A program made the translations under genes and the position numbers. From Coleofasciculus chthonoplastes F2-STO-03 (lineage in GTDB: Bacteria; Cyanobacteriota; Cyanobacteriia; Cyanobacteriales; Coleofasciculaceae), in contig JAVJWO010000186.1 in NCBI GenBank assembly GCA_040222015.1, forward strand, positions 1 to 15,183: a DNA stretch of 15,183 nucleotides, read 5' to 3'. Below are positions 670-13,980 of this stretch, piece by piece (position 1 is the first letter of the stretch; each line of letters opens with the position of its first letter). The notes below the pieces were generated by a model. The model did not search any database, was not told the DNA's origin, and saw only the letters and a list, made by a program, of their open reading frames with translations.

Positions 670-3321
670 TCATGAATTGGGCGCGTCTGGTGGTGGATTG
701 GGTGGGGAAAGCGATAGCAGTTGCTTTAACCCTTTTGGCACATTGTAGGCTGTTTCTAATCCTCGCACGTTTTCCCAGTTGGTGTGTTCATCCCAGGTAA
801 TACCGTCTAAGTCTACGCCACTGAGATTAGCATCACTGAGGTTGGCATCAAGGAGGTTAGCTAATTTTAAGTCGGCATCGTTGAGGTTGGCGTTGTTGAA
901 ATTTGCGCCCATGAGGTTTGCACAATTTAATTCTGCGTCGTTGAGATTTGCGCTGCTGAGGTTTGCCTGGATAAGGTTTGTCAAGTTGAGGTCTGCGTTG
1001 CTGAGGTCTGCGTTGCTGAGGTCTGCGTCGATAAGGTTTGCCATTTTCAGATCTGCACCAATGAGGTTAGCCTCGCTGAGATTTGCACCAAGGAGGTTAG
1101 CACCAATGAGATTGGCATTTTTAAGGTTTACGTCAGAGAAGTATGTACCTCTAAGATCTGCACTACTGAGATCTACACCGTTAAGGTTTACACAGTTGAG
1201 GAATGGACGAACTGTTAATACAAAAGTGAAATATTTAACGCTATTGCTATCATCAAGCAACGCCATCATATACTCGACTATTTCCCAGGTCAGTCCCCCA
1301 TAACCCAGTAAATCGTACACTTCCTCGGCTAACTTTTCCCGGCTAACCAGAAAACCTCCACGTCTGCGGCGCGGTTCAACTAATACCCACTCTTTCAAAC
1401 TTTCAACTAACCGCTGGGCGCATAAAAACTCAGCAAAACTTTTATGGACAAACTCCACCGCTCCTTCTGTTACACCAGCAGCAGAAGCGGGTCGTAGATA
1501 AAACGCTGCTAGCGCATTTCTCAAGGGATTATCACCAATGCGTTCTCGTGCCTTTTCTAATAAGTTTCTGGCTTGATCATCTCCCTTGAGACGTTCCTCA
1601 ATCATTGCAATTGAAGTCCACTCTCCACCCGATTGGGTAACACATAACCCCGCTTCTGTTAGAATGCGCCGCAAGCCTTCTGTCTCCTGTTCGGTGAGTT
1701 CCAGATTCAGTTCTTGAGAACGCTGCTGAGTCAGTACCCAATCTAAAGCTTTTTGATAAATTAACACTTTAGCATCAGCGCGGCTGGTTCCCTCAAACAT
1801 TTCTAAGGATATTTCATCATCCCGATGCATCGCGGCTAAAAGGTAAAGCAATAGCGGTTCTCGCGCCAATTCCTTCACCCGTTCCGGGCAGTTTTGATCC
1901 TGTAAAAACTCCCCAAATGCGTTAGCTTTATCCTCACCCACTAAATTTGACCATTTCCCCAACCATTGCTGCTGGAGTTGGTCATTCATTAGGGCAATTT
2001 CTACCCGTTCTAAATTGCGAGGTAGAAATTGTTCAATCCCATGTAATGCTAATTCTCGACCCGTGACTAAAAACCGATGTCCCAGTTGGGAATTTTGCTG
2101 ACAACTGGTTTGAAAATTTCCCACCTGTTTGAGAAACTTTTCAATCCCGCCTGTGGTTCTCCCCTCCATTCGCAATTCATCAAATCCATCCAGGACGAAT
2201 AAAAATCGGGTATTGCGGTCAGTTAACCAGCCGTCATCACTCTTAACAAAATCTGCCTTAACCGCAGCGCGGAGGGTATTTTCGATATTGTTTTCAAAGG
2301 CATCAATATCCCGGAGTCGAATCAGAATCGGTGTCCAGATGGGATGAAGATGTTCTCGCACCCAATTAGCAAACATGCGACAAAAGACACTTTTTACTCG
2401 TCCGGGTTTCGCTTGAATAAATAGGACTTGACCCTGTTTATCCGGGTTCGTAAGCTGTTCTTTTGCCCATTGTTCTAAATTAACCGGATTTGCTTGTTTA
2501 TCAATTTTGCCGTTTTTATCGACTAAATGGGCTTCCAGTGGCACATAGATATCCGGAAGCGTGAAATTTTCACCCAATACTTTCCACTGGCTTTGTAATA
2601 GAGGATTATTGGTATGAGGAGATATTTGTTCAGTTAAATAGGATTCAATGCTGCTATATTTCTGGGTTGCTTGAGTTTCCCGTGCGGCGGTGCGGGTTAA
2701 TTGTAGAGGTTTGGTAATCGTCTCTGATTCGTAGGATAGTAACTTATTAATTATCGGATAGATTCCCCAGGCTACCCATCCGGTTACAATAGGAATATTG
2801 TACTGATTTAATCCCGCTTGCTTTAAGTATTCTGATAATTGTTGATTTAAAGCCTGTCCTAACCGGGATTCGGGAAAATAGGTTAAAGCGTCTTCAATTA
2901 ATTTCTGGTCAAGTTGAAGTTCTCCAAGCTGATCCAATTGTGACTTAGCCGCTTGATTCGATATCCCAGAACCGATTTTTTGCTGTAGCCAATCATTTTC
3001 ACGCACCAATTGATCGAAGCTTTCCAGATACGCTAAAGGAAACGCGATCGCAGCCCACTCTTCTAACTTTGTCGTTCCCTTCGCCTTATCACGATACAGG
3101 TTCACCCCTTTGCGAGCAAGCCCCACAAACGACAACCCAGCCGGGATCGCCGCCATAGGTGCGGCTGGCGTTCCCAATAAACCTAGCGCGATCGCTAATT
3201 CTAACCCAGCTTTGGAAACCTCTGCGCCAGCCTCGGCAATTTCTCCCGGTTTCCCTAAATCCCGGATATCAGTATTGAGAAGCGTATTGAGAAGCTGCCA
3301 AACCTGCTTAATTTTTGTCAT
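670..3321 (-). CDS. NACHT-type STAND NTPase with C-terminal pentapeptide repeats
   Basis: 883-aa ORF with LPDIYVPL pre-P-loop motif, P-loop region FIQAKPGRVKS, Walker B FLFVLDGFDE, LVTGR sensor, PLLL, EFVHKSFAEFLCA, and a C-terminal A(N/D)Lxx pentapeptide tract. GGGAGAGG lies upstream of the ATG. Confidence 0.9.
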   Translation of the reverse strand: MTKIKQVWQLLNTLLNTDIRDLGKPGEIAEAGAEVSKAGLELAIALGLLGTPAAPMAAIPAGLSFVGLARKGVNLYRDKAKGTTKLEEWAAIAFPLAYLESFDQLVRENDWLQQKIGSGISNQAAKSQLDQLGELQLDQKLIEDALTYFPESRLGQALNQQLSEYLKQAGLNQYNIPIVTGWVAWGIYPIINKLLSYESETITKPLQLTRTAARETQATQKYSSIESYLTEQISPHTNNPLLQSQWKVLGENFTLPDIYVPLEAHLVDKNGKIDKQANPVNLEQWAKEQLTNPDKQGQVLFIQAKPGRVKSVFCRMFANWVREHLHPIWTPILIRLRDIDAFENNIENTLRAAVKADFVKSDDGWLTDRNTRFLFVLDGFDELRMEGRTTGGIEKFLKQVGNFQTSCQQNSQLGHRFLVTGRELALHGIEQFLPRNLERVEIALMNDQLQQQWLGKWSNLVGEDKANAFGEFLQDQNCPERVKELAREPLLLYLLAAMHRDDEISLEMFEGTSRADAKVLIYQKALDWVLTQQRSQELNLELTEQETEGLRRILTEAGLCVTQSGGEWTSIAMIEERLKGDDQARNLLEKARERIGDNPLRNALAAFYLRPASAAGVTEGAVEFVHKSFAEFLCAQRLVESLKEWVLVEPRRRRGGFLVSREKLAEEVYDLLGYGGLTWEIVEYMMALLDDSNSVKYFTFVLTVRPFLNCVNLNGVDLSSADLRGTYFSDVNLKNANLIGANLLGANLSEANLIGADLKMANLIDADLSNADLSNADLNLTNLIQANLSSANLNDAELNCANLMGANFNNANLNDADLKLANLLDANLSDANLSGVDLDGITWDEHTNWENVRGLETAYNVPKGLKQLLSLSPPNPPPDAPNS

Positions 3322-3434: not shown

Positions 3435-3785
3435 TGACAAAGGCGGATTTGGTATAAGACGAACTGGATAGTACAGCAGCATTTAGGAGTCAAGACATTG
3501 CTGGCATTGGGATGTCCATAAGTTAAATAGCGTCTTGACCAAAACTTCATAAAGTTCTGACACTTTCTTTATGGAAACTTTACCAAAAATAAAACAAAAG
3601 TTTATAAAATAAAGTTGAATTAAATTTTACTCTGTCGAAAAAATATCGGATTCATATTGTTTTCAGAAACAGGGTTAACGCAATTTAATTGCCGCAAGAA
3701 TTAATAGATAGGTGGGACGTTGCCTTCTTAGCATACATATCCAAGGGATAACCCAATATCAAACAATCACATTTGGAGCAAGTTG

Positions 3786-4652
3786 ATGAATTACATTTTT
3801 GGCACAGTTGGTGATGATTGGCTAGAAGGCACATCCAGTGATGATGTCATTTATGGAGGTGAAGGAACCAATCAGATTATAGCGAGATATGGCAATAATG
3901 AAATTTACGGCGGTTCGGCGGCTGATTGGATTACGGCTGGGGATGGCAATGACACGATTTATGCCAACGAAGGGGAAAATATAATTGATGCTGGAGGCGG
4001 CGATAACCTGATTTACGGGGGTTCGGCGGCTGATTGGATTACGGCTGGGGATGGCAATGACACGATTTATGCCAACGAAGGGGAAAATATAATTGATGCT
4101 GGAGGCGGCGATAACCTGATTTATGGGGGTTCGGCTGCTGATTGGATTACGGCTGGGGATGGCAATGACACGATTTATGCCAACGAAGGGGAAAATATAA
4201 TTGATGCTGGAGGCGGCGATAACCTGATTTATGGGGGTTCGGCGGCTGATACAATTACCACGGGATCGGGTGATGATATTATTTACGCGGGTGAAGGGGT
4301 AAACACGATTAATACTGGAGATGGAAATGACATTATTTACAGTGGTTCAGGTGATGATTTAATTAATGCAGGTAGAGGTCAAAATCAAATCTGGCTGGGC
4401 GGTGGACAGGATACCATTAGCTTAGAAATGTGGGGATCTAGTGAGATTAATAACTTTAACCCCTATCAAGACCAAATTGACTTGGGACTCTCCGATCTAC
4501 GCGGCGTAGTTTTGATAGGACTTGGCAATGATACAATGATCGGTTTAGGTAATCATTCGATTATGGCAACGCTGCATAATGTTGATGTTCAGACTGTGGC
4601 GGCTCATTCAACTGATATTTTTGGCGCAGAACTTACTCTGTTTTCCAGTTAA
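3786..4652 (+). CDS. Hemolysin-type (RTX-like) calcium-binding repeat protein, probable T1SS substrate
   Basis: Gly/Asp-rich nonapeptide repeats (AGDGNDTIY, GSGDDIIYA, GDGNDIIYS), no Sec signal, and a C-terminal INNFNPYQDQIDL motif typical of RTX C-termini. GGAG lies 7 nt before ATG 3786, which is preferred over TTG 3783. Confidence 0.88.
   Translation: MNYIFGTVGDDWLEGTSSDDVIYGGEGTNQIIARYGNNEIYGGSAADWITAGDGNDTIYANEGENIIDAGGGDNLIYGGSAADWITAGDGNDTIYANEGENIIDAGGGDNLIYGGSAADWITAGDGNDTIYANEGENIIDAGGGDNLIYGGSAADTITTGSGDDIIYAGEGVNTINTGDGNDIIYSGSGDDLINAGRGQNQIWLGGGQDTISLEMWGSSEINNFNPYQDQIDLGLSDLRGVVLIGLGNDTMIGLGNHSIMATLHNVDVQTVAAHSTDIFGAELTLFSS
3903..4250 (+). repeat. Intragenic 108-bp tandem repeat (about 3.2 near-identical copies, 36 aa each)
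   Basis: Units start at 3903, 4011, 4119 and 4227 (partial) and encode identical IYGGSAADWITAGDGNDTIYANEGENIIDAGGGDNL. Confidence 0.95.
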
Positions 4653-4734
4653 GCCTGTCCAGCGATCATCGGTCATCATACCAAATCCGGGTTCCGGGTT
4701 GACAGCCCCTTTTTATGCCAACCGCAAAAACATT

Positions 4735-4776
4735 GTAGAGACGTTGCAGTAGAGACGTTGCATGCAGCGTCTCTAC
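4735..4776. repeat. GTAG-type REP-like palindrome with a duplicated left half
   Basis: GTAGAGACGTTGCATGCAGCGTCTCTAC (4749-4776, one mismatch), preceded by a direct 14-bp copy GTAGAGACGTTGCA (4735-4748). Confidence 0.8.
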
Positions 4777-4833
4777 TGGTATATCTTGACATCTACAAAA
4801 ATTAGGATATGAATCGGACATCTCGCGATCGCG

Positions 4834-4866
4834 CCCAATGACGCCCCAATGACGCCCCAATGACGC
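4834..4866. repeat. 11-bp tandem repeat CCCAATGACGC x3 next to a HIP1 site
   Basis: Three exact copies at 4834, 4845 and 4856. Confidence 0.9.
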
Positions 4867-5183
4867 CAAGTGGTACTCAAGAAACCCAAGCGTGAGAGAT
4901 CGCTGGGTGGAAGTAGGTTGCATGTACACTCTTCATTCAGATTAGCGCATTACGCTTCTTACGGTGCAGCAATTTCAACTAGCTTTGTGAGCAGATGCAT
5001 CATCAGGATGATGCAAATGAGTTCACCACATTGATGTTGGGGGAGTCCAGTGTATCCCAACGCGCTCATCATAGATTACAGGGTGGGTCTTATTGCTCCC
5101 CCTTTCCCCCCACGATTAGATAAAATCTAGACAAGCTGGATGCAAACAAGGATTCCAGCCAACTCCTTTAAGATTTATTAAAG

Positions 5184-5420
5184 ATGATGAAACCTAAATT
5201 AGTCATAACCGCTATTTTGGCAACGAGCGCGATCGCAACAGGTGTGATGCTAGGTTCAGCTAGTTCCGCCCAATCCTGTAGCTATAGCAAGTATGAGTCC
5301 TCTCACCGAAAAGAAGCCCAGCTAGACTGGTTGCGATCGCCTTGGGCTATCGTGATCACCTTACCTGGAATCGCCTTGGCAACAGCCCTGTCTAGAGGTG
5401 GGCGTTCCTACGACAGTTAA
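5184..5420 (+). CDS. Small hypothetical membrane/exported protein
   Basis: 78 aa with a basic N-terminus and hydrophobic signal-like stretch (MMKPKLVITAILATSAIATGVMLGSASSAQS), a second hydrophobic segment (PWAIVITLPGIALATAL) and a basic tail. Start may be 5187. Confidence 0.7.
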   Translation: MMKPKLVITAILATSAIATGVMLGSASSAQSCSYSKYESSHRKEAQLDWLRSPWAIVITLPGIALATALSRGGRSYDS

Positions 5421-5587
5421 TCCGGGACATATCGCGTGTAGACGACAACAACTTAACTCGCTCCTAAACCATTATCCCAGACCTTACCCATTTTCTGATA
5501 CTCCCGCTTAGTTCCCTGGAGTAGAGGGGACATGGTCACGGGACATTGTAATATTCCCTCCACAATTTGACAGGAATTATCGCGGTT

Positions 5588-5754
5588 GTAGGGGCGAGTC
5601 GCTGCATATCCTAGGCAGTGTGAGAAGTAACCTATCTCGACTCGCCCTTTTCTAACGGTATGTGGTTTCTGATAATTACCGATACCCAGCGCAGGGCGAG
5701 CCGATCGCATTAAGGGCTGAGCGGTGTGAATTGAATGCGGCGGCTCGCCCCTAC
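5588..5754. repeat. Two GTAG-type REP-like inverted pairs (BIME-like element) downstream of hlyD
   Basis: GTAGGGGCGAGTCG...CGACTCGCCC (5588-5647) and GGGCGAGCCG...CGGCTCGCCCCTAC (5694-5754). The outer ends GTAGGGGCGAG/CTCGCCCCTAC are exact inverted repeats. Confidence 0.75.
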
Positions 5755-5838
5755 CATTGTCTTTATGTAGGGCTTGCTGCATGAATATGGTGCGCATGGA
5801 GGACTTCTGTCGCTGACTGATAACGTTGCTTAACTTTT

Positions 5839-7296
5839 TTATCGTACAGTTTTGAGACTATCAATTTTCCGCATAAACAAGTCGCTGAAGATACTAATTA
5901 CAGGACGCTTGCGGACTTTAATATTAGCGCTGATTGACATCCCCGATTGTAAGGGAATTTCTTTTCCATTGACAGATATGGTTTGTCTATCCATGCGAAT
6001 TTCCGCTGGGAAACGATAGAACGGGTAGACTTCATTGGGCGGTAAAGCATCAGAACCAATCTGGACTAAATTGCCTTTGACATCCCCAAATTCGCTATAG
6101 GGGAAGGAATCAACCCTGACATCCACGGACATTCCTTCATTGACAAAACCAATGTCTTGGTTAGTGATATAAACTTTGGCAACGAGTGTGTCATTCGGGA
6201 CAATTTTCAGCACGGGCTCACTGGTGTTTGCCACAAATTCAGGACTGGCTTGCAGGTCAAACACTATGCCACTTTCAGGTGCATGTAATTCCTGATTGGT
6301 TAACGTTACCTGGATTTGGCTGAGTTGACTCTCGATTTCTTGGAGACGTTTTTGGTTTTCAACAATAATTTTGGTGAGTTGGCTGTCAATTTCGGCAATC
6401 CGTTGTTCGTTTTGAGCAATTTGCGTTCGCAGTTCTTCTTCCGATAGCGCCATGGTGTTCTGTTTGCGTTCCTGGGCTTGCTCGATCGCTTTCTCTAACC
6501 GTTCCTGTTCTTTCTGGAGACGGGCTACTTCGGCGGCGCTGCTGTCGGTGTCTTGTTTCTGACGCAGATACTGGAGTTCGCCGAATGCTCCTTCTCGCCA
6601 CAGCTTTTCTAGGCGATCGGTAATTTGTCGGTTAAAGGCTAACACTTGTTCAGCATCGGCAAGTTGGATTTGGGTTTGAGTGAATTGTCGGTTGAGTTGT
6701 TCGACTTCTAAATCGGCTGCCGCAACGCGAGAGTTATACTCGTTTTGGCTTGCCTGTAAACGTTGCTGTTGGGCTAGAGTTAATCCGGCTGGATTTCCCG
6801 TGAGTTGGGCTTGATAGTACCGATTTTCTGCCACTAAAGCCGCCCGATTTTTGGTAAGTGAGGCAATTTGGGGCGGGAGTTTCTCTGGCAGATTTTCGGG
6901 GTCAATGGGAACGGCTTTGCCCGTCATCTGAGCCTGATAAAATTGATTTTCTTGCATCAAAGCGGCGCGAATTTGCTGGAGCGATTTAAATTGAGCTTGA
7001 GCCGCTGTTTGGTCAAAAGTGAGTAGGGTATCCCCTTTTTCGACGCGATCGCCTTCTTCAACCTCCACCGATTTAACCACCCCACCTTGAGGGGCTTGGA
7101 CTTCCTTGACGGCGGCTTTGGGTTCGAGTTTGCCTTGGGCGGGAATGGCTTCTTCAATTTTCGCGAAACACGCCCAGGTGACGCTTAATGTCGTCACCCC
7201 AATAATCGCTACCACAATCATTCGGGGCCACAGGGGAGATTGTTGCAGGATAACGGGTTGATCAAATTCTGGGGGTTGATTGGTTTCATTCGTCAT
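5839..7296 (-). CDS. hlyD: HlyD-family type I secretion periplasmic adaptor (membrane fusion protein)
   Basis: N-terminal TM helix, lipoyl-like halves (VQAPQGGVVKSVEVEEGDRVEKGDTLL; LHAPESGIVFDL), long coiled coil, and C-terminal DIGFV...VDSFPYSEFG...LQSGM beta-barrel. Confidence 0.93.
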   Translation of the reverse strand: MTNETNQPPEFDQPVILQQSPLWPRMIVVAIIGVTTLSVTWACFAKIEEAIPAQGKLEPKAAVKEVQAPQGGVVKSVEVEEGDRVEKGDTLLTFDQTAAQAQFKSLQQIRAALMQENQFYQAQMTGKAVPIDPENLPEKLPPQIASLTKNRAALVAENRYYQAQLTGNPAGLTLAQQQRLQASQNEYNSRVAAADLEVEQLNRQFTQTQIQLADAEQVLAFNRQITDRLEKLWREGAFGELQYLRQKQDTDSSAAEVARLQKEQERLEKAIEQAQERKQNTMALSEEELRTQIAQNEQRIAEIDSQLTKIIVENQKRLQEIESQLSQIQVTLTNQELHAPESGIVFDLQASPEFVANTSEPVLKIVPNDTLVAKVYITNQDIGFVNEGMSVDVRVDSFPYSEFGDVKGNLVQIGSDALPPNEVYPFYRFPAEIRMDRQTISVNGKEIPLQSGMSISANIKVRKRPVISIFSDLFMRKIDSLKTVR

Positions 7297-7326
7297 TGGT
7301 CATTCATCTTATGTCATTCGTCACTG
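7285..7326. repeat. STRR-like heptamer tract (GTCATTC/GTCATTG) at the hlyD start
   Basis: TTCATTC GTCATTG GTCATTC ... GTCATTC GTCACTG. A similar short tract lies near 11416-11432. Confidence 0.55.
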
Positions 7327-7387
7327 TTTCGGGTCAAACAACTTTTTTCATCTTGAGGACTTAGAAAAAACAAAGGACATAAGACCA

Positions 7388-10300
7388 TCAAAGTTGAGCA
7401 TCTTGCTGTTGATAGAGGCAGTAGTAGCGCCCTTGCAGTGCCATCAGTTCGCCATGGGTTCCTTGTTCAACCACTGATCCTTTATCCATCATTAAAATGA
7501 TGTCGCTGTTGCGAATGGTAGTTAAACGGTGGGTAATGAAAAAGACAGTGCGTCCTTTGAAGGCTTCAATTAAATTTAAACAAACTTGCCGTTCGGTGTC
7601 ATAGTCAAGGGCGCTGGTGGCTTCGTCTAGAATTAAAAGTCGCGGATTTTGCAGTACCGTGCGGGCAATGGCAATTCGCTGGCGTTGTCCTCCTGATAGG
7701 GATGATCCCCGCTCCCCGACTCTTGTATTGTAACCACTAGACAACCCCATAATAAACTCATGAGCGGCGGCGACTTTAGCGGCGGCAATAATTTCCTCGG
7801 CGCTAGCATCAGGATTGGTGAGGGCAATATTATCTTGTACCGTACCATCAAACAGCAGACTATCCTGGGGTACAATCCCTACCTGACGACGCAGAGAATA
7901 GAGTTCAACTTTGGAGATATCATAGTTGTCGATCAGAATTCTCCCTGAATCAACATCATAGAGACGGGGTAACAGTTTCATTAATGTACTCTTACCGGAA
8001 CCACTTTGACCGACAATCCCGACAAATATGCCAGCCGGAAAATGCAGGTTAATATTGGTTAATTGCCAAGGACCACTGGTGCCAAAGCGGAAGGAGAGAT
8101 TTTCATACTCCACTTCCCCTTTAATCGCAGGCATAGGAATATTTAAGCGATCCGCCTCATCCGCTTCTTGGGGGCTATCTACAATATCACTCAACCGTTC
8201 TAAAGATAGCGCCGTTTCTTGGAAATTCTGCCACAGTTGGGCTAATCGGAGTAAGGGACTGGTAACATAGCCGGAAATAATCCGGAACGCGATTAATTGC
8301 CCTAGGGTTAATTGTCCATCTAAAACCAGATAAGCACCCACCCACAGCACTAACAACGCCGAGAGTTTATTCAAGAAATTACTCGCTGAACCCGCCGTTG
8401 TCGAGGTAAGCACCGTCTTGAACCCCGCCGATACATACCGGGCATAGCGTTCCTGCCATTGCCAGCGCGTTCGCAATTCGATGTTTTGCGCTTTTACCGT
8501 TTGAATCCCAGACATGACTTCGACTAAATAGGATTGCGTCTGGGCGTTCCGTTCAGCTTTAACCCGCAGTTGGCGACGGACAATCGGTGACACAATTACG
8601 GTTAACAACACAAACAGGGGAATAATCCCCAAGGAGACAATGGTTAGCACCCAGCTATAAATAAACATGACCACGATGTACAACACGGAAAACACCGCAT
8701 CTAACACCACCGTCAACGCCGTTCCCGTAAGAAACTGACGAATATTTTCCAACTCATTAATTCGACTCGCCAGTTCCCCCACGGGACGCTTTTCAAAATA
8801 CCGCAACGGTAAGCGGACTAAGTGGTCAATAATCTCCGATCCCAGATGCATATCAATCCGGTTCGTCGTATCCACAAATAGATACGTGCGGAAACTGGTT
8901 AATAGCGCCTCAAAAACGGCAATAATGACCAGGAAAAACCCCAGTACATGCAGTGTATCAATACTGTTCTGTACAATCACCTTATCGATGATCACTTGGA
9001 TCATCAACGGATTCGCCAGTCCAAATAGCTGCACAAAAAAGGAGGCGATAAACACCAAAATTAAGACGCGGCGATAGCGTACCAGAGACGGGAGAAACCA
9101 TTGCAAGCCAAACCGTTGTTGCGGCGTGTGCTTTGTCCGTTGTACCAGCAGCACCGGGATCGCTTCCGGTGACTGCCCGTCTTCGCTTCTCGGTAAACTA
9201 TCCAGTAAATCAGCAGGTTTGCGGCGGACAATCCCCAATTCTGGCACGCCCAGCAGCAATTCCCGGGGCTTGGCTTCATAGAGAACGGCAAAGCCTTCAT
9301 ACCAAGGAACCAGGGCGGGGGTTTGCAGGCGACTAATCGATTGGGGCGGTACATTTACCAATTGGGCATGTAAACCGATTAAATCCGCCACCGCCCCACA
9401 CAGGGGTAACGACAGCCCCCCGGTGCGCTGCATCTGTTCATTAAGTACCCGACGGATCACATCGCGGCGAAAGGGCATTTCTAAATGCTTACTCAGCATT
9501 TGGAAACAGGCTAGGGTACCATCGAGGAGTCCTTTCCCTCGGACATGGGGATATTTGCGGCGTTGGTCAGAGGTTTGATCTACGTCCTCTGTGGCTTCTG
9601 GCGGTTTATCAGGGGCATAGGGGATACTCTCGTTGCCATTGTTATCATCCAGCCAAGGGTCATCGTCGGTGGTTAGGGGGGTTTGTTCGCCAACTACTGT
9701 CACTGGGGTAGTGGGAGGTTCGGTTTCAGGTTCCCCGACTAAATCCGATTCGCGAAAGCCGACAATCCGGGCGGGGGTAGATCCTTGGATGTCCAATCCC
9801 TGAGAAATTGCCTCTGGCGTCAGCCGACTTCCCACGAGAAAATCTTTGACGACACTCCCGCCACTGACAAACCACACCCGATCTGGCGTCAGCAGTTCCG
9901 TGGCGTCAGTCATGGGATAGAGGTAACGCACCTGGGCATCTTGGTAAGCGTTTTTTGCCAGTTCTTTGAGATTCATAATCCCACTGGCTTGGCGTACCAA
10001 CTCCGCGCCAATTAACTCGAAGGCTTCGATGACACTGCACTGGTTTTGGAACGCGGCGGTAGCGGTGGGTTCCTGTGCCATCAGCGCTAAAAACTGACCC
10101 GTGGGGATGGTTAAGCAGACTGCCTCCGTTGATGCGATCGCGGTTTCACAAGGGATACCCCGTATCACACTCACCCAACCCAGAATCGCGCCCGGTTTCA
10201 ACAAGTCTAGGGTGACAGGTTTTTGCGTGGTTTGTTCGTAGCTTAAAAGACGCGCCTTTCCCTCATAGAGAATCGAGATTTGAGAGGGCATTTTGTCTCG

Positions 10301-10438
10301 CACCAGGATCGGTTGACCCATGCGGTAGCGCAATAGTTGACTTTTTTCCGCCAACTTGGTTAGCGTCGAGGCTTCAAGTTGATTGAAGGGAACGATATCC
10401 GCCAGAAAATCCTGAATCGTTGTCTTTGTGTAGGTCAT
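7388..10438 (-). CDS. hlyB: Type I secretion ABC transporter (HlyB family) with N-terminal cNMP-binding domain and inactive C39-like domain
   Basis: Walker A GQSGSGKS, signature LSGGQRQR, Walker B LLILDE, H-loop ITHRL, ABC TM domain, and an N-terminal cNMP-like fold. The C39-like DGTLACFQM lacks the DCG catalytic Cys. GAGG lies 8 nt before ATG 10438, which is preferred over TTG 10444. Confidence 0.93.
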   Translation of the reverse strand: MTYTKTTIQDFLADIVPFNQLEASTLTKLAEKSQLLRYRMGQPILVRDKMPSQISILYEGKARLLSYEQTTQKPVTLDLLKPGAILGWVSVIRGIPCETAIASTEAVCLTIPTGQFLALMAQEPTATAAFQNQCSVIEAFELIGAELVRQASGIMNLKELAKNAYQDAQVRYLYPMTDATELLTPDRVWFVSGGSVVKDFLVGSRLTPEAISQGLDIQGSTPARIVGFRESDLVGEPETEPPTTPVTVVGEQTPLTTDDDPWLDDNNGNESIPYAPDKPPEATEDVDQTSDQRRKYPHVRGKGLLDGTLACFQMLSKHLEMPFRRDVIRRVLNEQMQRTGGLSLPLCGAVADLIGLHAQLVNVPPQSISRLQTPALVPWYEGFAVLYEAKPRELLLGVPELGIVRRKPADLLDSLPRSEDGQSPEAIPVLLVQRTKHTPQQRFGLQWFLPSLVRYRRVLILVFIASFFVQLFGLANPLMIQVIIDKVIVQNSIDTLHVLGFFLVIIAVFEALLTSFRTYLFVDTTNRIDMHLGSEIIDHLVRLPLRYFEKRPVGELASRINELENIRQFLTGTALTVVLDAVFSVLYIVVMFIYSWVLTIVSLGIIPLFVLLTVIVSPIVRRQLRVKAERNAQTQSYLVEVMSGIQTVKAQNIELRTRWQWQERYARYVSAGFKTVLTSTTAGSASNFLNKLSALLVLWVGAYLVLDGQLTLGQLIAFRIISGYVTSPLLRLAQLWQNFQETALSLERLSDIVDSPQEADEADRLNIPMPAIKGEVEYENLSFRFGTSGPWQLTNINLHFPAGIFVGIVGQSGSGKSTLMKLLPRLYDVDSGRILIDNYDISKVELYSLRRQVGIVPQDSLLFDGTVQDNIALTNPDASAEEIIAAAKVAAAHEFIMGLSSGYNTRVGERGSSLSGGQRQRIAIARTVLQNPRLLILDEATSALDYDTERQVCLNLIEAFKGRTVFFITHRLTTIRNSDIILMMDKGSVVEQGTHGELMALQGRYYCLYQQQDAQL

Positions 10439-10464
10439 GGGCAAGCCTCAGGGAATAGCATTGT

Positions 10465-10490
10465 TCCAGACGTAGCATGCTACGTCTGGA
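10465..10490. repeat. Perfect 26-bp palindrome between the PPIase and ABC transporter genes
   Basis: TCCAGACGTAGCA|TGCTACGTCTGGA; the core resembles the REP-like palindrome at 4749-4776. Confidence 0.85.
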
Positions 10491-10496
10491 CAGGGT

Positions 10497-11234
10497 TTAG
10501 GATTGAACGGGTGTACCTAAGGATATTTGTTGTCGCAGTTGTTCTTTTAACCAGGTGGTAAACATTTCATCTAGGAGTCGCTGACGCATCGGATCATCTA
10601 GTTGCACGGGTAAAAATTTTTCTAAACGAATGACGATAAACCAGTCGCCTAAACGGGTGGGGGGCAAAAGTTGACCCGGTTGGCTAACGGTTAACATTTG
10701 CGCCAAGGTGGGGTGGGGTGTACTCAGTTCAACGGGTCCGACTAATCCGCCTGTTTGCGCCTCTGGTCCTTGGGAATAATCCCTGGCGAGTTCATTAAAT
10801 GACTGTTCTCCTTCTTGGATACGAAAATAGAGTTCTTGGGCAATCGCCGCCTCCTTTGTCCGAATCAGGGAATAAATCACCCGATCTAACCGTCCTTTGC
10901 GCTTGAGGAAATAGGATTCAATCTTATGTCCCCAAGTCGCCTGTTTAAATTTTTCCAGCTTCAGTCCCCGAACCGCTAATTCTTCAACTTGTTCTAAGCT
11001 TAAGTCTTGGCGATCGCGCCACGCTTGACGCTCTTCCTGGGAAGTTAGCTGATTTTTAGTATAGAACTGCTCGGAGGCAGCATTTTTTTCTTCGTCGGTA
11101 CAATCTAGGGTGGCAATGGCTTGATCAATAATGATTTCTCGCAATAACTGAGGGAGTAATTGATATTTGGCTAACAGGGGAATTACTTCTTCAGCCGTGA
11201 TGGTTTGGTCGCCAACCTTTAAAATGGCAGTCAT
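10497..11234 (-). CDS. Parvulin/PpiC-type peptidyl-prolyl cis-trans isomerase associated with T1SS
   Basis: VIYSLIR...ELYFRIQEGEQSFNELARDYSQGPEAQTGGLVGP rotamase motif; lies directly upstream of the ABC transporter in the same orientation. Confidence 0.88.
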   Translation of the reverse strand: MTAILKVGDQTITAEEVIPLLAKYQLLPQLLREIIIDQAIATLDCTDEEKNAASEQFYTKNQLTSQEERQAWRDRQDLSLEQVEELAVRGLKLEKFKQATWGHKIESYFLKRKGRLDRVIYSLIRTKEAAIAQELYFRIQEGEQSFNELARDYSQGPEAQTGGLVGPVELSTPHPTLAQMLTVSQPGQLLPPTRLGDWFIVIRLEKFLPVQLDDPMRQRLLDEMFTTWLKEQLRQQISLGTPVQS

Positions 11235-11488: not shown

Positions 11489-12625
11489 TTAACATTTCTT
11501 CGTGCATTGTACAGAATTTAGGGCGACAGCGATACAAGTGTGAATATCGGCATTGGTTTTAATCGCTCCCGGTGTAATATGAGTGGCACAGGCGAAATAT
11601 CCGCGATCGCGCAATGCCTGAATCAGATGCTCTCGTTTGGGGATATCCAAACGCCCTCGGCGTCCAATTTCCGCCAAGGTATAAAAGTAGGGCGGGAAAT
11701 CGGCTTCGGCTTCGGCTTCCATGAGGCTGAGGAGTTGTACCCGTTTTGACCAGTGCCACTTTTCAGCTAATCCCTGCATCTGTCTTAACCAAGATTGATT
11801 ATGCAACAGTCCCAGCCACAGAGGACCACTCAGGGTCAGGGATTTTTGGTCATAAGCACAAACCACACGCCCTAACTGACGCCAGGACACAGTTTGATAA
11901 TTGCCACAGTGATGACAATAACCCAAAAATCCGTAATTTTGCAGCGTCAACGGCTGGGTTTTGACCAAACGTACCATCAGGCGATAGGTTTGACCTGTAA
12001 ACAGGGAGAAAATCGGCTCAATCCCCAAACCCTTGGCGATGGCTTGCTGCTGGAGTTTACCAATCACCACTCGTAATCCTTGTTCCTGGGCGGCGGGATG
12101 GTTGCGGGGATATGCCCCATAAATGCCCAAACTACTTTCTGAAGCATGACCCGTCAGCTTGCGCCCATCGGTACTGGTGAGATAGAGAAGTCCCCCTAGT
12201 TTCAGCGCCCAGAGGCTGGTATCCAGATAGGGGGTAGGGGAACCAAAGCAGTCCACATCGATGAAATCGTAGTAGTCTCGGCGGTTATAGCACTCAAAAA
12301 AGACCTGATTGGCGTCGAGATGGGTAAGGGTGGCTTTATGGCTTGCGATCGCGCCTGCTAAATTTTGCTGTAGAATCGGGTTCAGCTCAGGATTTCCCTC
12401 ATTCACCCATATCCAATCCGCTTCACTCTCCAAATCATAACGTAGAGAACGCACCCCACAGCCACTCATCGCATCAATTACTCGTAAGTGACCGATTTGA
12501 GACTTATAAATTGCTGCAGCTAAAACCCCTAAATCTCGCACCAATTGCGTTCCTGGGCGATAAAACGCATTACCAATTTTAAATGTGGCGTTGCCTTCGG
12601 TATGTTCAGTTAAATTTCGGGTCAT
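11489..12625 (-). CDS. trm1: tRNA (guanine26-N2)-dimethyltransferase, Trm1 family
   Basis: AFY-P...RDLGV, SAM motif VIDAMSGCGVRSLRY, IDVDCFGSP, TSTDG, E-GLR, CHHC, GPLWLG, and C-terminal THI...IKTNA. Confidence 0.88.
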   Translation of the reverse strand: MTRNLTEHTEGNATFKIGNAFYRPGTQLVRDLGVLAAAIYKSQIGHLRVIDAMSGCGVRSLRYDLESEADWIWVNEGNPELNPILQQNLAGAIASHKATLTHLDANQVFFECYNRRDYYDFIDVDCFGSPTPYLDTSLWALKLGGLLYLTSTDGRKLTGHASESSLGIYGAYPRNHPAAQEQGLRVVIGKLQQQAIAKGLGIEPIFSLFTGQTYRLMVRLVKTQPLTLQNYGFLGYCHHCGNYQTVSWRQLGRVVCAYDQKSLTLSGPLWLGLLHNQSWLRQMQGLAEKWHWSKRVQLLSLMEAEAEADFPPYFYTLAEIGRRGRLDIPKREHLIQALRDRGYFACATHITPGAIKTNADIHTCIAVALNSVQCTKKC

Positions 12626-12687: not shown

Positions 12688-12717
12688 TTGACGCGAGCCA
12701 CAACAGCTTGCTATGGT
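12688..12717 (+). promoter_or_regulatory. Putative sigma70-type promoter for the aroF leader
   Basis: TTGACG (12688-12693), 18-nt spacer, TATGGT (12712-12717) preceded by TGC (extended -10). Inferred TSS is about 12723-12725, roughly 40 nt before leader 1. Confidence 0.6.
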
Positions 12718-12764
12718 ATCCGGTAACAGGCATCTCGTTAACGTTTCATAGAAAGCCCACAGCT

Positions 12765-12821
12765 ATGCTCAACTACAACAACTACTTTTATTTTTGGTTT
12801 ACGGAGGTTCACCGGAGGTGA
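12765..12821 (+). CDS. Aromatic-rich attenuator leader peptide 1 (MLNYNNYFYFWFTEVHRR)
   Basis: ATG 12765 to TGA 12821; six consecutive aromatic codons Y-F-Y-F-W-F (12783-12800) plus an earlier Tyr. Followed by a terminator and upstream of DAHP synthase. SD is weak (AGAAAG). Confidence 0.8.
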   Translation: MLNYNNYFYFWFTEVHRR

Positions 12822-12851
12822 GCAGAGTTCCTCATGGAACCTCCCCCGGTG

Positions 12852-12887
12852 GACCGCAGAGCGAAAGCTGCGGTCTTTTTGTTTTTT
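12852..12887 (+). terminator. Intrinsic terminator of attenuator 1
   Basis: GACCGCAG-(AGCGAAAG)-CTGCGGTC 8-bp stem followed by TTTTTGTTTTTT. Confidence 0.85.
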
Positions 12888-12899
12888 AAGGAGTATCTG

Positions 12900-12968
12900 A
12901 TGACAACCTACCTGAGTAACTTGTTTACCTTATTTTACTTTTTTTGGTTCGGAAGCGGTTCCGGGTAG
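12900..12968 (+). CDS. Aromatic-rich attenuator leader peptide 2 (MTTYLSNLFTLFYFFWFGSGSG)
   Basis: AAGGAG (12888-12893) lies 6 nt before ATG 12900; six consecutive aromatic codons F-Y-F-F-W-F (12933-12950); TAG at 12966-12968. Confidence 0.85.
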   Translation: MTTYLSNLFTLFYFFWFGSGSG

Positions 12969-12993
12969 GTAATGCTGCGTTAAATTTTCTCAG

Positions 12994-13024
12994 AACCCGG
13001 AACCCGCAAGAAACCGGGTTTTTT
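12994..13024 (+). terminator. Intrinsic terminator of attenuator 2
   Basis: AACCCGG (12994-13000) / CCGGGTT (13014-13020) stem with a 13-nt loop, running into TTTTGTTGTT. Confidence 0.75.
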
Positions 13025-13057
13025 GTTGTTCACTCATTGTTTAAAGGAATTAGTCTG

Positions 13058-13900
13058 ATGTTGAATGCTAAACTTGCCACTCAATCTGATCGCCAAACCC
13101 TGGTTCATCTTTCGGATCGTATCACTTTCGGCGGTGAGGAACTGGTGATTATTGCCGGTCCTTGTACGGTTGAGAGTCGATCGCAGATGGAAACGGTTGC
13201 GACTCAATTGCAACGCGCCCCAGTTCAAGGGTTACGCGGCGGTGCTTTCAAACCCCGCACGTCTCCTTACTCGTTCCAAGGTTTAGGGGTAGAGGGATTA
13301 CAGATATTATCCCAAGTGCGATCGCGTCATCAGATTCCCGTGGTGACGGAAGTCATGTCCATTTCCCAAATTGAGTTAGTTGCTGCCCATGCTGATATGC
13401 TTCAGGTGGGCAGTCGTAATATGCAGAACTTTGATTTGCTCAAAGCCTTGGGTGACGTTGATAAACCGATTCTGCTGAAGCGGGGATTAGCGGCGACTCT
13501 AGAAGAATTCGTCATGGCAGCCGAATATATTCTCAGTCATGGGAATTCTCAAGTGGTGCTGTGCGAAAGGGGGATTCGTAGTTTCGATACCTATACCCGG
13601 AATGTCTTAGATTTGGGGGCAGTTGTGGCACTCAAGCAGATGACTTCATTGCCTGTAATTGTAGATCCCTCCCATGCGACGGGCAAACGGGAATTAATTC
13701 CCGCCTTGGCGAAAGCGGCTGTCGCAGTGGGTGCGGATGGATTAATCATTGAGTGTCATCCCGAACCGGAAAAATCCGTATCTGATGCCCGTCAAGCATT
13801 ATCGTTAGACGATATGGTGCAGTTGGTTCACAGCTTACACCCCATCGCCGCCGCCGTCGGGCGAAAAATTCCAGCCAGTTTAGCGGATGTGTCAGCCTGA
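13058..13900 (+). CDS. aroF: 3-deoxy-7-phosphoheptulonate (DAHP) synthase, type I-beta, short form (280 aa)
   Basis: IAGPCTVES, RGGAFKPRTSPYSFQGLG, QVGSRNMQNF, LLKRG, LCERGIR, VDPSHATG, ECHPEP and SDARQ motifs. KPRTS indicates DAHP rather than KDO8P synthase. AAAGGA SD lies before ATG 13058. Confidence 0.93.
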   Translation: MLNAKLATQSDRQTLVHLSDRITFGGEELVIIAGPCTVESRSQMETVATQLQRAPVQGLRGGAFKPRTSPYSFQGLGVEGLQILSQVRSRHQIPVVTEVMSISQIELVAAHADMLQVGSRNMQNFDLLKALGDVDKPILLKRGLAATLEEFVMAAEYILSHGNSQVVLCERGIRSFDTYTRNVLDLGAVVALKQMTSLPVIVDPSHATGKRELIPALAKAAVAVGADGLIIECHPEPEKSVSDARQALSLDDMVQLVHSLHPIAAAVGRKIPASLADVSA

Positions 13901-13942: not shown

Positions 13943-13980
13943 ATCCCGGACTTAGAAACAGTTCCGGGATGTTGTTGTTT
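13943..13980 (+). terminator. Putative terminator hairpin after aroF, between convergent genes
   Basis: ATCCCGGA (13943-13950) / TCCGGGAT (13963-13970) stem followed by GTTGTTGTTT. Confidence 0.5.

Follow-up and report, generated by a model that had tools for sequence, protein, structure and literature searches.

Two predicted aromatic leader-peptide attenuators in series upstream of a short DAHP synthase gene in cyanobacteria

How is a biosynthetic enzyme held in check when it lacks a feedback domain of its own? [quoted passage not shown] An initial annotation, made from the letters of the window, had proposed two leader-peptide attenuators in series with Phe, Tyr and Trp codons, and this proposal is now supported by codon content, covariation and fixed spacing across loci. 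We consider it very probable that two ribosome-mediated transcription attenuators in series control this second DAHP synthase, which is without a feedback domain.

The aroF product scored above the cut-offs of TIGR01361 and PRK08673 and carries PF00793, the catalytic barrel, alone; the N-terminal ferredoxin-like regulatory domain is absent. Its best PDB matches were the short enzymes 1ZCO and 1VS1, which we take to be unregulated. The domain loss suggests that the aroF enzyme is probably feedback-insensitive to Phe, Tyr and Trp. The other DAHP synthase of the genome (L002, 352 residues) is 49% identical to the aroF product and has both PF00793 and the ferredoxin-like PF18152; an aroF-type leader was looked for in front of this paralogue and none was found. 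The closest DNA-encoded relatives, 96% identical, are labelled Coleofasciculus.

A sequence scan placed the promoter, the two leader ORFs, the two terminators and the Shine-Dalgarno (SD) sequences of leader 2 and aroF where the initial annotation had read them, all on the + strand, and exact translation gave its six consecutive aromatic codons per leader, covering Phe, Tyr and Trp (YFYFWF and FYFFWF). The predicted sigma-70-type promoter (12688..12717; TTGACG, 18 nt, extended -10 TG-TATGGT) was the single promoter-like site between 12300 and 13300, a count at chance level (1 found, 1.1 expected); of the collected loci described below, 98/108 have a TTGAC-N15-19-TAnnnT site 5' of leader 1. Leader ORF 1 (12765..12821, 18 codons), which has no SD-like site, is followed by intrinsic terminator 1 with its U-tract (12851..12887; hairpin 12851-12876; -15.4 kcal/mol, z -3.3). 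Immediately after this U-tract comes the SD-like AAGGAG of leader 2 (12888..12893; such a site is present in 49/108 loci), and then leader ORF 2 (12900..12968, 22 codons) and intrinsic terminator 2 with its U-tract (12994..13027; hairpin from 12994 to about 13020-13022). The SD-like AAAGGA of aroF (13043..13048) lies outside both helices. A further hairpin at 13943-13970, 3' of aroF, resembles terminator 2 in its arms and runs into a GT/T-rich tract; it is probably the terminator of aroF itself.

Each module consists of three segments: the last leader codons, the 5' arm of the terminator, and its 3' arm with the U-tract. Segments 1 and 2 pair as a predicted antiterminator and segments 2 and 3 as the terminator, and the two pairings are mutually exclusive. 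Antiterminator 1 (12806..12855) would pair the Val-His-Arg codons of ORF 1 (12806-12815) with 12846-12855, overlapping the 5' arm of terminator 1 (-30.1 kcal/mol, z -4.6), and antiterminator 2 (12957..13004) would pair the end of ORF 2 (12957-12966) with 12995-13004 in the 5' arm of terminator 2. All four helices were assigned by folding and covariation.

Such an arrangement is rare in the source genome. Among 16,069 intergenic ATG ORFs of 10-35 codons examined as a chance control, 87 precede a predicted terminator, and just ORF 1 and ORF 2 combine at least five aromatic codons in seven with a terminator. The covariance models built for module 1 (R1) and module 2 (R2) matched no other site in this genome. 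Some other short ORFs of the genome are worth recording. A near-identical pair of Leu-rich short ORFs stands in tandem at G000:C75:1130-1210 and 1234-1314, each followed by a predicted terminator, and may represent toxin-like repeats of type I or a further pair of leaders; at G000:C64:10064-10168, a short ORF with five consecutive Thr codons precedes a predicted terminator.

The initial annotation had suggested a survey upstream of short aroF homologues. Loci were gathered by protein search and RNA model, those below 65% identity or with a match starting after residue 20 were dropped, and identical loci were merged, which left 121. Because related loci are not independent, the locus counts given here describe conservation and not statistical significance. 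Both modules were found in 113/121 loci (101 by script and 12 by R1/R2), module 2 alone in five (L004, L013, L028, L063 and L131) and module 1 alone in one (L159); in L015 and L016 the upstream DNA was too short. The survey thus recovered conserved modules of an aromatic upstream ORF and a terminator, mostly double and some single: the tandem is the norm, yet it is not obligatory. No R1 or R2 match was found in 8 loci of long DAHP synthases. Some loci deviate individually: unrelated, insertion-like DNA takes the place of module 1 in L004, leader 2 is fused to foreign sequence in L131, the stop codon of leader 1 comes two codons past Trp in L120, and a TGA lies within the aroF match in L143.

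The link between modules and gene was also seen in wider samples. In a phylum sample of 151 genomes, 26 had a short aroF at >=71% identity, with the next matches at <=55%; R2 matched in 25 of these 26, each time just upstream of aroF, and the 26th had module 1 only. R1 matched 53/151 genomes of a class sample, with one match per genome. For a held-out test, 40 of these 53 R1 loci were taken (ten were already in the set and three were omitted), 36 of the 40 being new sequences; all 40 lead into aroF and 38 also have an R2 match, and the strict script recognised a pair of leaders in 32 and a single leader in 8. A close downstream ORF on the same strand is present in 11/106 photosynthetic loci and the neighbouring genes differ between loci; operon context in photosynthetic cyanobacteria was considered and set aside. 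Because neighbours vary and close downstream partners are rare, the promoter, both modules and aroF appear to move as one unit.

The leaders themselves are conserved in codon identity and in geometry. Phe, Tyr and Trp are all present in 108/110 module-1 leaders and 106/108 module-2 leaders, with 5-9 aromatic codons per leader. The family patterns are M...YFYFW-x3-VH-x-x-stop for leader 1 and MT...WFYGFYFW-x4-SG-stop for leader 2. From the last Trp codon to the anchor the distance is 4 codons in 103/110 module-1 leaders and 5 codons in 98/108 module-2 leaders, and the pairing segment begins about 9-11 nt after Trp in both modules. The tail residues of leader 1 shift (VHR to VRP, VHW or VHL) together with their RNA pairing partners, so the apparent peptide motifs at the leader ends reflect RNA pairing and not a function of the peptide. 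Phe is written preferentially as UUU (616/663 leader Phe codons, from loci that are not independent, vs 73% in the genome). A NusG-type TTNTTT pause in the aromatic runs was considered: it is present in 89/110 module-1 loci (59% expected) but in 62/108 module-2 loci (67% expected), and so is not general. An elemental-pause match occurs in module 1 of 63/110 loci.

Covariation was found for both alternative pairings. In module 1 (54 sequences), antiterminator positions are 87.9% paired, with 6 covarying pairs and 26 cells of two-sided change vs 5.8 in shuffled alignments, and the terminator is 99% paired, with 11 G-C/A-U swaps at one pair. In module 2 (52 sequences), the antiterminator has 5 pairs and 17 such cells vs 5.0 shuffled, and the terminator, 86% paired, has 4 covarying pairs and 22 cells vs 7.6 shuffled. 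The shuffles never attained the observed number of two-sided cells in either module, and a U-tract is retained at both hairpins in essentially all aligned loci. These putative antiterminators, which covary in both modules, are an addition to the initial annotation, which listed none. An optional early helix of module 1 (12803..12844, + strand, from folding; 12803-12810 with 12837-12844; -18.3 kcal/mol, z -2.1) varies between lineages and is weak in many loci, its own pairs scoring -7.2 vs -5.8 kcal/mol for swapped ones (71 combinations); it is a candidate hairpin that could pause the polymerase or protect the terminator. No such helix was evident in the module-2 alignment. R1 and R2 each cross-match the other module weakly (E 0.001-0.04), which fits, without proving, an old duplication of the module.

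The element is not confined to photosynthetic cyanobacteria. L076 (Candidatus Obscuribacterales) and L079 have both leaders, and in these two non-photosynthetic relatives a chorismate mutase-prephenate dehydrogenase fusion follows aroF (L076:2904-3701 and L079:3202-4704); L079 is labelled Proteobacteria, though its genome falls among the relatives of the Obscuribacterales genome. In the set of relatives of the L076 genome, R1 matched 19/41 genomes, all 19 matches leading into aroF (59-79% identity), and R2 matched 11 of the 19 at E <0.01. A check of 7 of these genomes, which are metagenome-assembled and of completeness not given, found no gene of photosystem I. At L179/L189 (G186:C6:60185-60446), two module-1 copies stand in series instead of module 1 and module 2, and L183 has one module-1 copy alone. 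In a quick tree of 63 catalytic domains, the 52 short enzymes all share a single branch (support 100), with the 33 photosynthetic ones together (88), an outcome that allows a common ancestor or an early transfer alike.

Among these relatives, one genome (G200) also contains a further tandem unit (L190; on the minus strand of G200:C20 at about 2650-3010) in which the leaders are Tyr-dominated and without Trp: one has four Tyr codons and one Phe, the other four Tyr codons, and the starts are TTG and GTG. Downstream lie a gene resembling that of L-tyrosine isonitrile synthase (267 bits, short of the 600 cut-off), a dioxygenase gene and a gene for an FAD protein. This single case ties codon identity to the function of the downstream gene. 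It is also odd, as stalling at Tyr shortage would induce a Tyr-consuming pathway. A literature search for the tyrosine variant found no description of it.

To see where a ribosome would switch the pairing, we folded 40 sampled loci (usable: 35 for module 1 and 37 for module 2) with a ribosome on each codon in turn and 9 nt covered past the A site. In this model, until the 3' arm of the terminator emerges, an A site on the Trp codon or on a codon preceding it leaves the antiterminator pre-formed (median 0.75-1.0); the helix is lost by Trp+1 (module 1) or Trp+3 (module 2), so the switch would lie at the end of the aromatic run. On ribosome-free RNA the modelled antiterminator pre-forms too (median 1.00 for either module). 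The default that this predicts is read-through, and start-codon knockouts should likewise read through, at least in module 2. Four of six features by which an attenuator may be recognised are present in the sequence, namely cognate codons, an intrinsic terminator, an antiterminator and spacing, the last judged from the fixed Trp-to-anchor distance and the flip of the 9-nt-footprint model.

One mechanism that accommodates these observations is as follows. The polymerase would start from the promoter (12688-12717), and leader 1 would receive a ribosome. With ample charged Phe-, Tyr- and Trp-tRNA, the ribosome would pass the Trp codon and cover the segment about 9-10 nt on; terminator 1 could then fold and transcription would end near 12882-12884. 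If any one of the three tRNAs were scarce, the ribosome would wait in the aromatic run and the segment would pair with the 5' arm of the terminator, giving read-through, provided that the antiterminator forms first and holds while the polymerase crosses the U-tract. The SD of leader 2 would then emerge and the test would repeat, ending in a stop near 13025-13027 or in entry into aroF. Since termination would have to fail twice, read-through would be the product of two probabilities, which predicts a lower basal expression and a steeper response. Here we infer that the leaders are translated, that transcription terminates in vivo, that the response depends on the amino acids and that the two modules act multiplicatively. 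In function, the pair would most likely check the supply of aromatic aminoacyl-tRNA twice over, keeping an isozyme that is probably free of feedback switched off until required.

Several points weigh against two attenuators of this kind. Leader 1 has no SD-like site in the window and has one in just 2/108 loci, and terminator 2 of the window is weak (-10.3 kcal/mol, z -1.1, two possible registers). When the 3' arm is out and the ribosome is at or before Trp, the base of the terminator still forms at equilibrium, with medians of 0.18-0.62 in module 1 and 0.60-0.91 in module 2; the corresponding values in the window are 0.65-0.97 in module 1 and 0.00 in module 2. Because equilibrium often favours the terminator, the switch would need a folding order, that is, kinetics. 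The switch point also depends on the footprint: with 12 nt covered, a ribosome stalled on the Trp codon itself keeps antiterminator 1 blocked. Many of the 121 loci that R1 and R2 helped to count had gone into building these models, and the covariation shuffles ignore relatedness, with many pairs being invariant. Public RNA matches to L047 came from 22 runs, all of them Logan contigs sharing 0.29-0.35 of words; four contig sets cover the leader and aroF, although contigs cannot show ends, strand or level, and they are interrupted by repeats between the leader and aroF. What the analysis observes directly is the sequence, its conservation, the covariation, the fixed spacing and the gene linkage, and the locus is real, strongly conserved and mechanistically coherent.

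The folding of the antiterminator without a ribosome in both modules also raises the thought that the pair is a general sensor of translation stress, since non-specific slowing would then give read-through: any slowing or failed loading, as in darkness, nitrogen starvation or with antibiotics, would open both switches, and the aromatic codons would be of minor importance. Stress-sensing upstream ORFs are indeed known (PMC12121999, cited, like the other papers here, for the portion accessible). What argues against such a sensor, and makes it improbable to us, is that six to nine aromatic codons of three kinds are kept at fixed positions and correspond to the pathway that the downstream gene serves, and that the codons become Tyr in front of a tyrosine-using gene (L190).

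Still less likely is an arrest by the nascent peptide, of the TnaC or SecM kind, in which the peptide together with a free amino acid or another ligand, and not a shortage of charged tRNA, would stall the ribosome. The near invariance of the Trp position and the frequent Trp-Pro of leader 2 (66/98) would suit it, whereas the residues past Trp are free to vary, F, Y and W interchange inside the run, and leaders 1 and 2 are unlike in sequence while alike in geometry; moreover, a stall caused by excess amino acid would induce a biosynthetic gene when its product is plentiful. The hairpins might instead act on translation or RNA stability, as processing or stabilising ends or by masking the ribosome-binding site of aroF. 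Terminator 2 is weak in the window, as noted, and canonical intrinsic terminators end just 22% of Synechococcus elongatus transcription units (PMC12642595). The U-tract kept at both hairpins speaks against this explanation, and between the end of stem 2 and the start of aroF there are 21-358 nt (median 46), which leaves the SD uncovered; we regard it as having as slim a chance as peptide arrest. Transcription attenuation by ribosome position is thus the reading that we prefer.

If two attenuators operate here, the locus bears on how closely ribosomes follow polymerases in cyanobacteria. No match to Rho above the family cut-off was found in the source genome, and a leader-peptide attenuator conserved in such Rho-less cells would demonstrate that the ribosome stays close enough behind the polymerase to control termination; the locus offers a simple reporter for this question. 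In the accessible part of a review that summarises Johnson et al. 2020 (PMC7858274), cyanobacteria are not named in the context of coupling. That the tandem exists because coupling is loose was considered and set aside, as no runaway signature appeared: 6/82 predicted terminators start <=12 nt from the stop codon (median 41.5), by a crude proxy with a 12-nt threshold, in which 89/4,294 ORFs have a predicted terminator. The locus also suggests a route of raising shikimate flux, with a tightly silenced and probably feedback-free second isozyme beside a regulated one, which has a bearing on the engineering of aromatic products in cyanobacteria. With two amino-acid attenuators in series for the same signal, nature would offer a test of whether a stacked arrangement gives a sharper response.

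A bolder idea, which we offer tentatively and hold to be rather less than an even bet, is that the unit is a portable double attenuator, ON by default, possibly older than oxygenic photosynthesis, in which tandemness is selected (L179) and the target can be changed through the codons (L190). [quoted passage not shown]

The remainder of the window contains genes of other kinds. Divergent from aroF is a gene like that of the Trm1 tRNA dimethyltransferase (11489-12625, - strand; TIGR00308, 202 bits, below cut-off); it lies next upstream in just 4 loci. The region 3783-11234 looks like a type I secretion cluster, with an RTX-type calcium-binding repeat protein at 3783-4652, HlyD-like and ABC-transporter-like genes (both so labelled by sequence reading and not by scan) and peptidyl-prolyl-isomerase-like genes. 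An 883-residue protein with C-terminal pentapeptide repeats is encoded at 670-3321 (- strand).

How does the element compare with known systems? No Rfam family matched at its gathering threshold, the one match being BjrC68 at 15.2 bits vs 39. A 2016 survey (PMC4833913) states in its accessible part that there were no reliable data on an attenuation mechanism in cyanobacteria; the portion covered of PMC1173090, which predicts attenuators of aromatic genes, includes no cyanobacterium, and that of PMC7693272 describes three DAHP synthase genes in Chlorogloeopsis with attenuation unmentioned. According to a 2025 preprint (PMC12642595), cyanobacterial termination is poorly understood and terminators of a hairpin and U-tract function with the cyanobacterial polymerase. 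In agreement with the initial annotation, which knew of no characterised tandem leader-peptide attenuator in cyanobacteria, none turned up in the literature searched, nor did any cyanobacterial description of such an element, most subscription journals and supplements being beyond the reach of this search.

Four-segment attenuators of the trpL type respond to one amino acid and have a 1:2 protector helix, so that an untranslated leader terminates. Here, module 1 has the variable early helix and, unlike in E. coli trp, the leader segment itself would be the antiterminator arm and the model antiterminates without a ribosome. What is shared with enterobacterial trpL, pheL and pheM (named in PMC11802643) is the run of cognate codons, the choice between antiterminator and terminator, and a readout by ribosome position.

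Closest in target is Corynebacterium glutamicum aroR-aroF (Neshat et al. 2014, as described in PMC11802643; leader first noted in PMC4046766), where an aromatic-codon leader peptide likewise precedes a DAHP synthase gene and stalling raises transcription. That system has one module with Phe-Tyr-Phe, reported to be Phe- and not Tyr-responsive (PMC11802643), whereas the present locus has two modules, includes Trp and belongs to another phylum. The Acholeplasma motif uORFC-13-1, a predicted Phe-codon upstream ORF with a terminator upstream of aroF, is similar, but it is a single motif, a prediction with 24 representatives found only in Acholeplasma and environmental DNA (PMC8632094). For the tandem, the nearest likeness is the Salmonella mgtCBR leader, in which two short ORFs (mgtM and mgtP) and alternative stem-loops share one leader, an arrangement called a singular example (PMC3641672). 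The mgtCBR leader senses two signals, ATP and proline, additively; its modules serve different signals, whereas both leaders here carry the same three amino acids and both modules end in intrinsic terminators. The mechanism class, the target gene and the tandem arrangement each have a precedent in Corynebacterium or Salmonella. In a phylum for which the literature searched holds no reported case, what appears to be new is the combination: two amino-acid attenuators for the same signal, placed in series.

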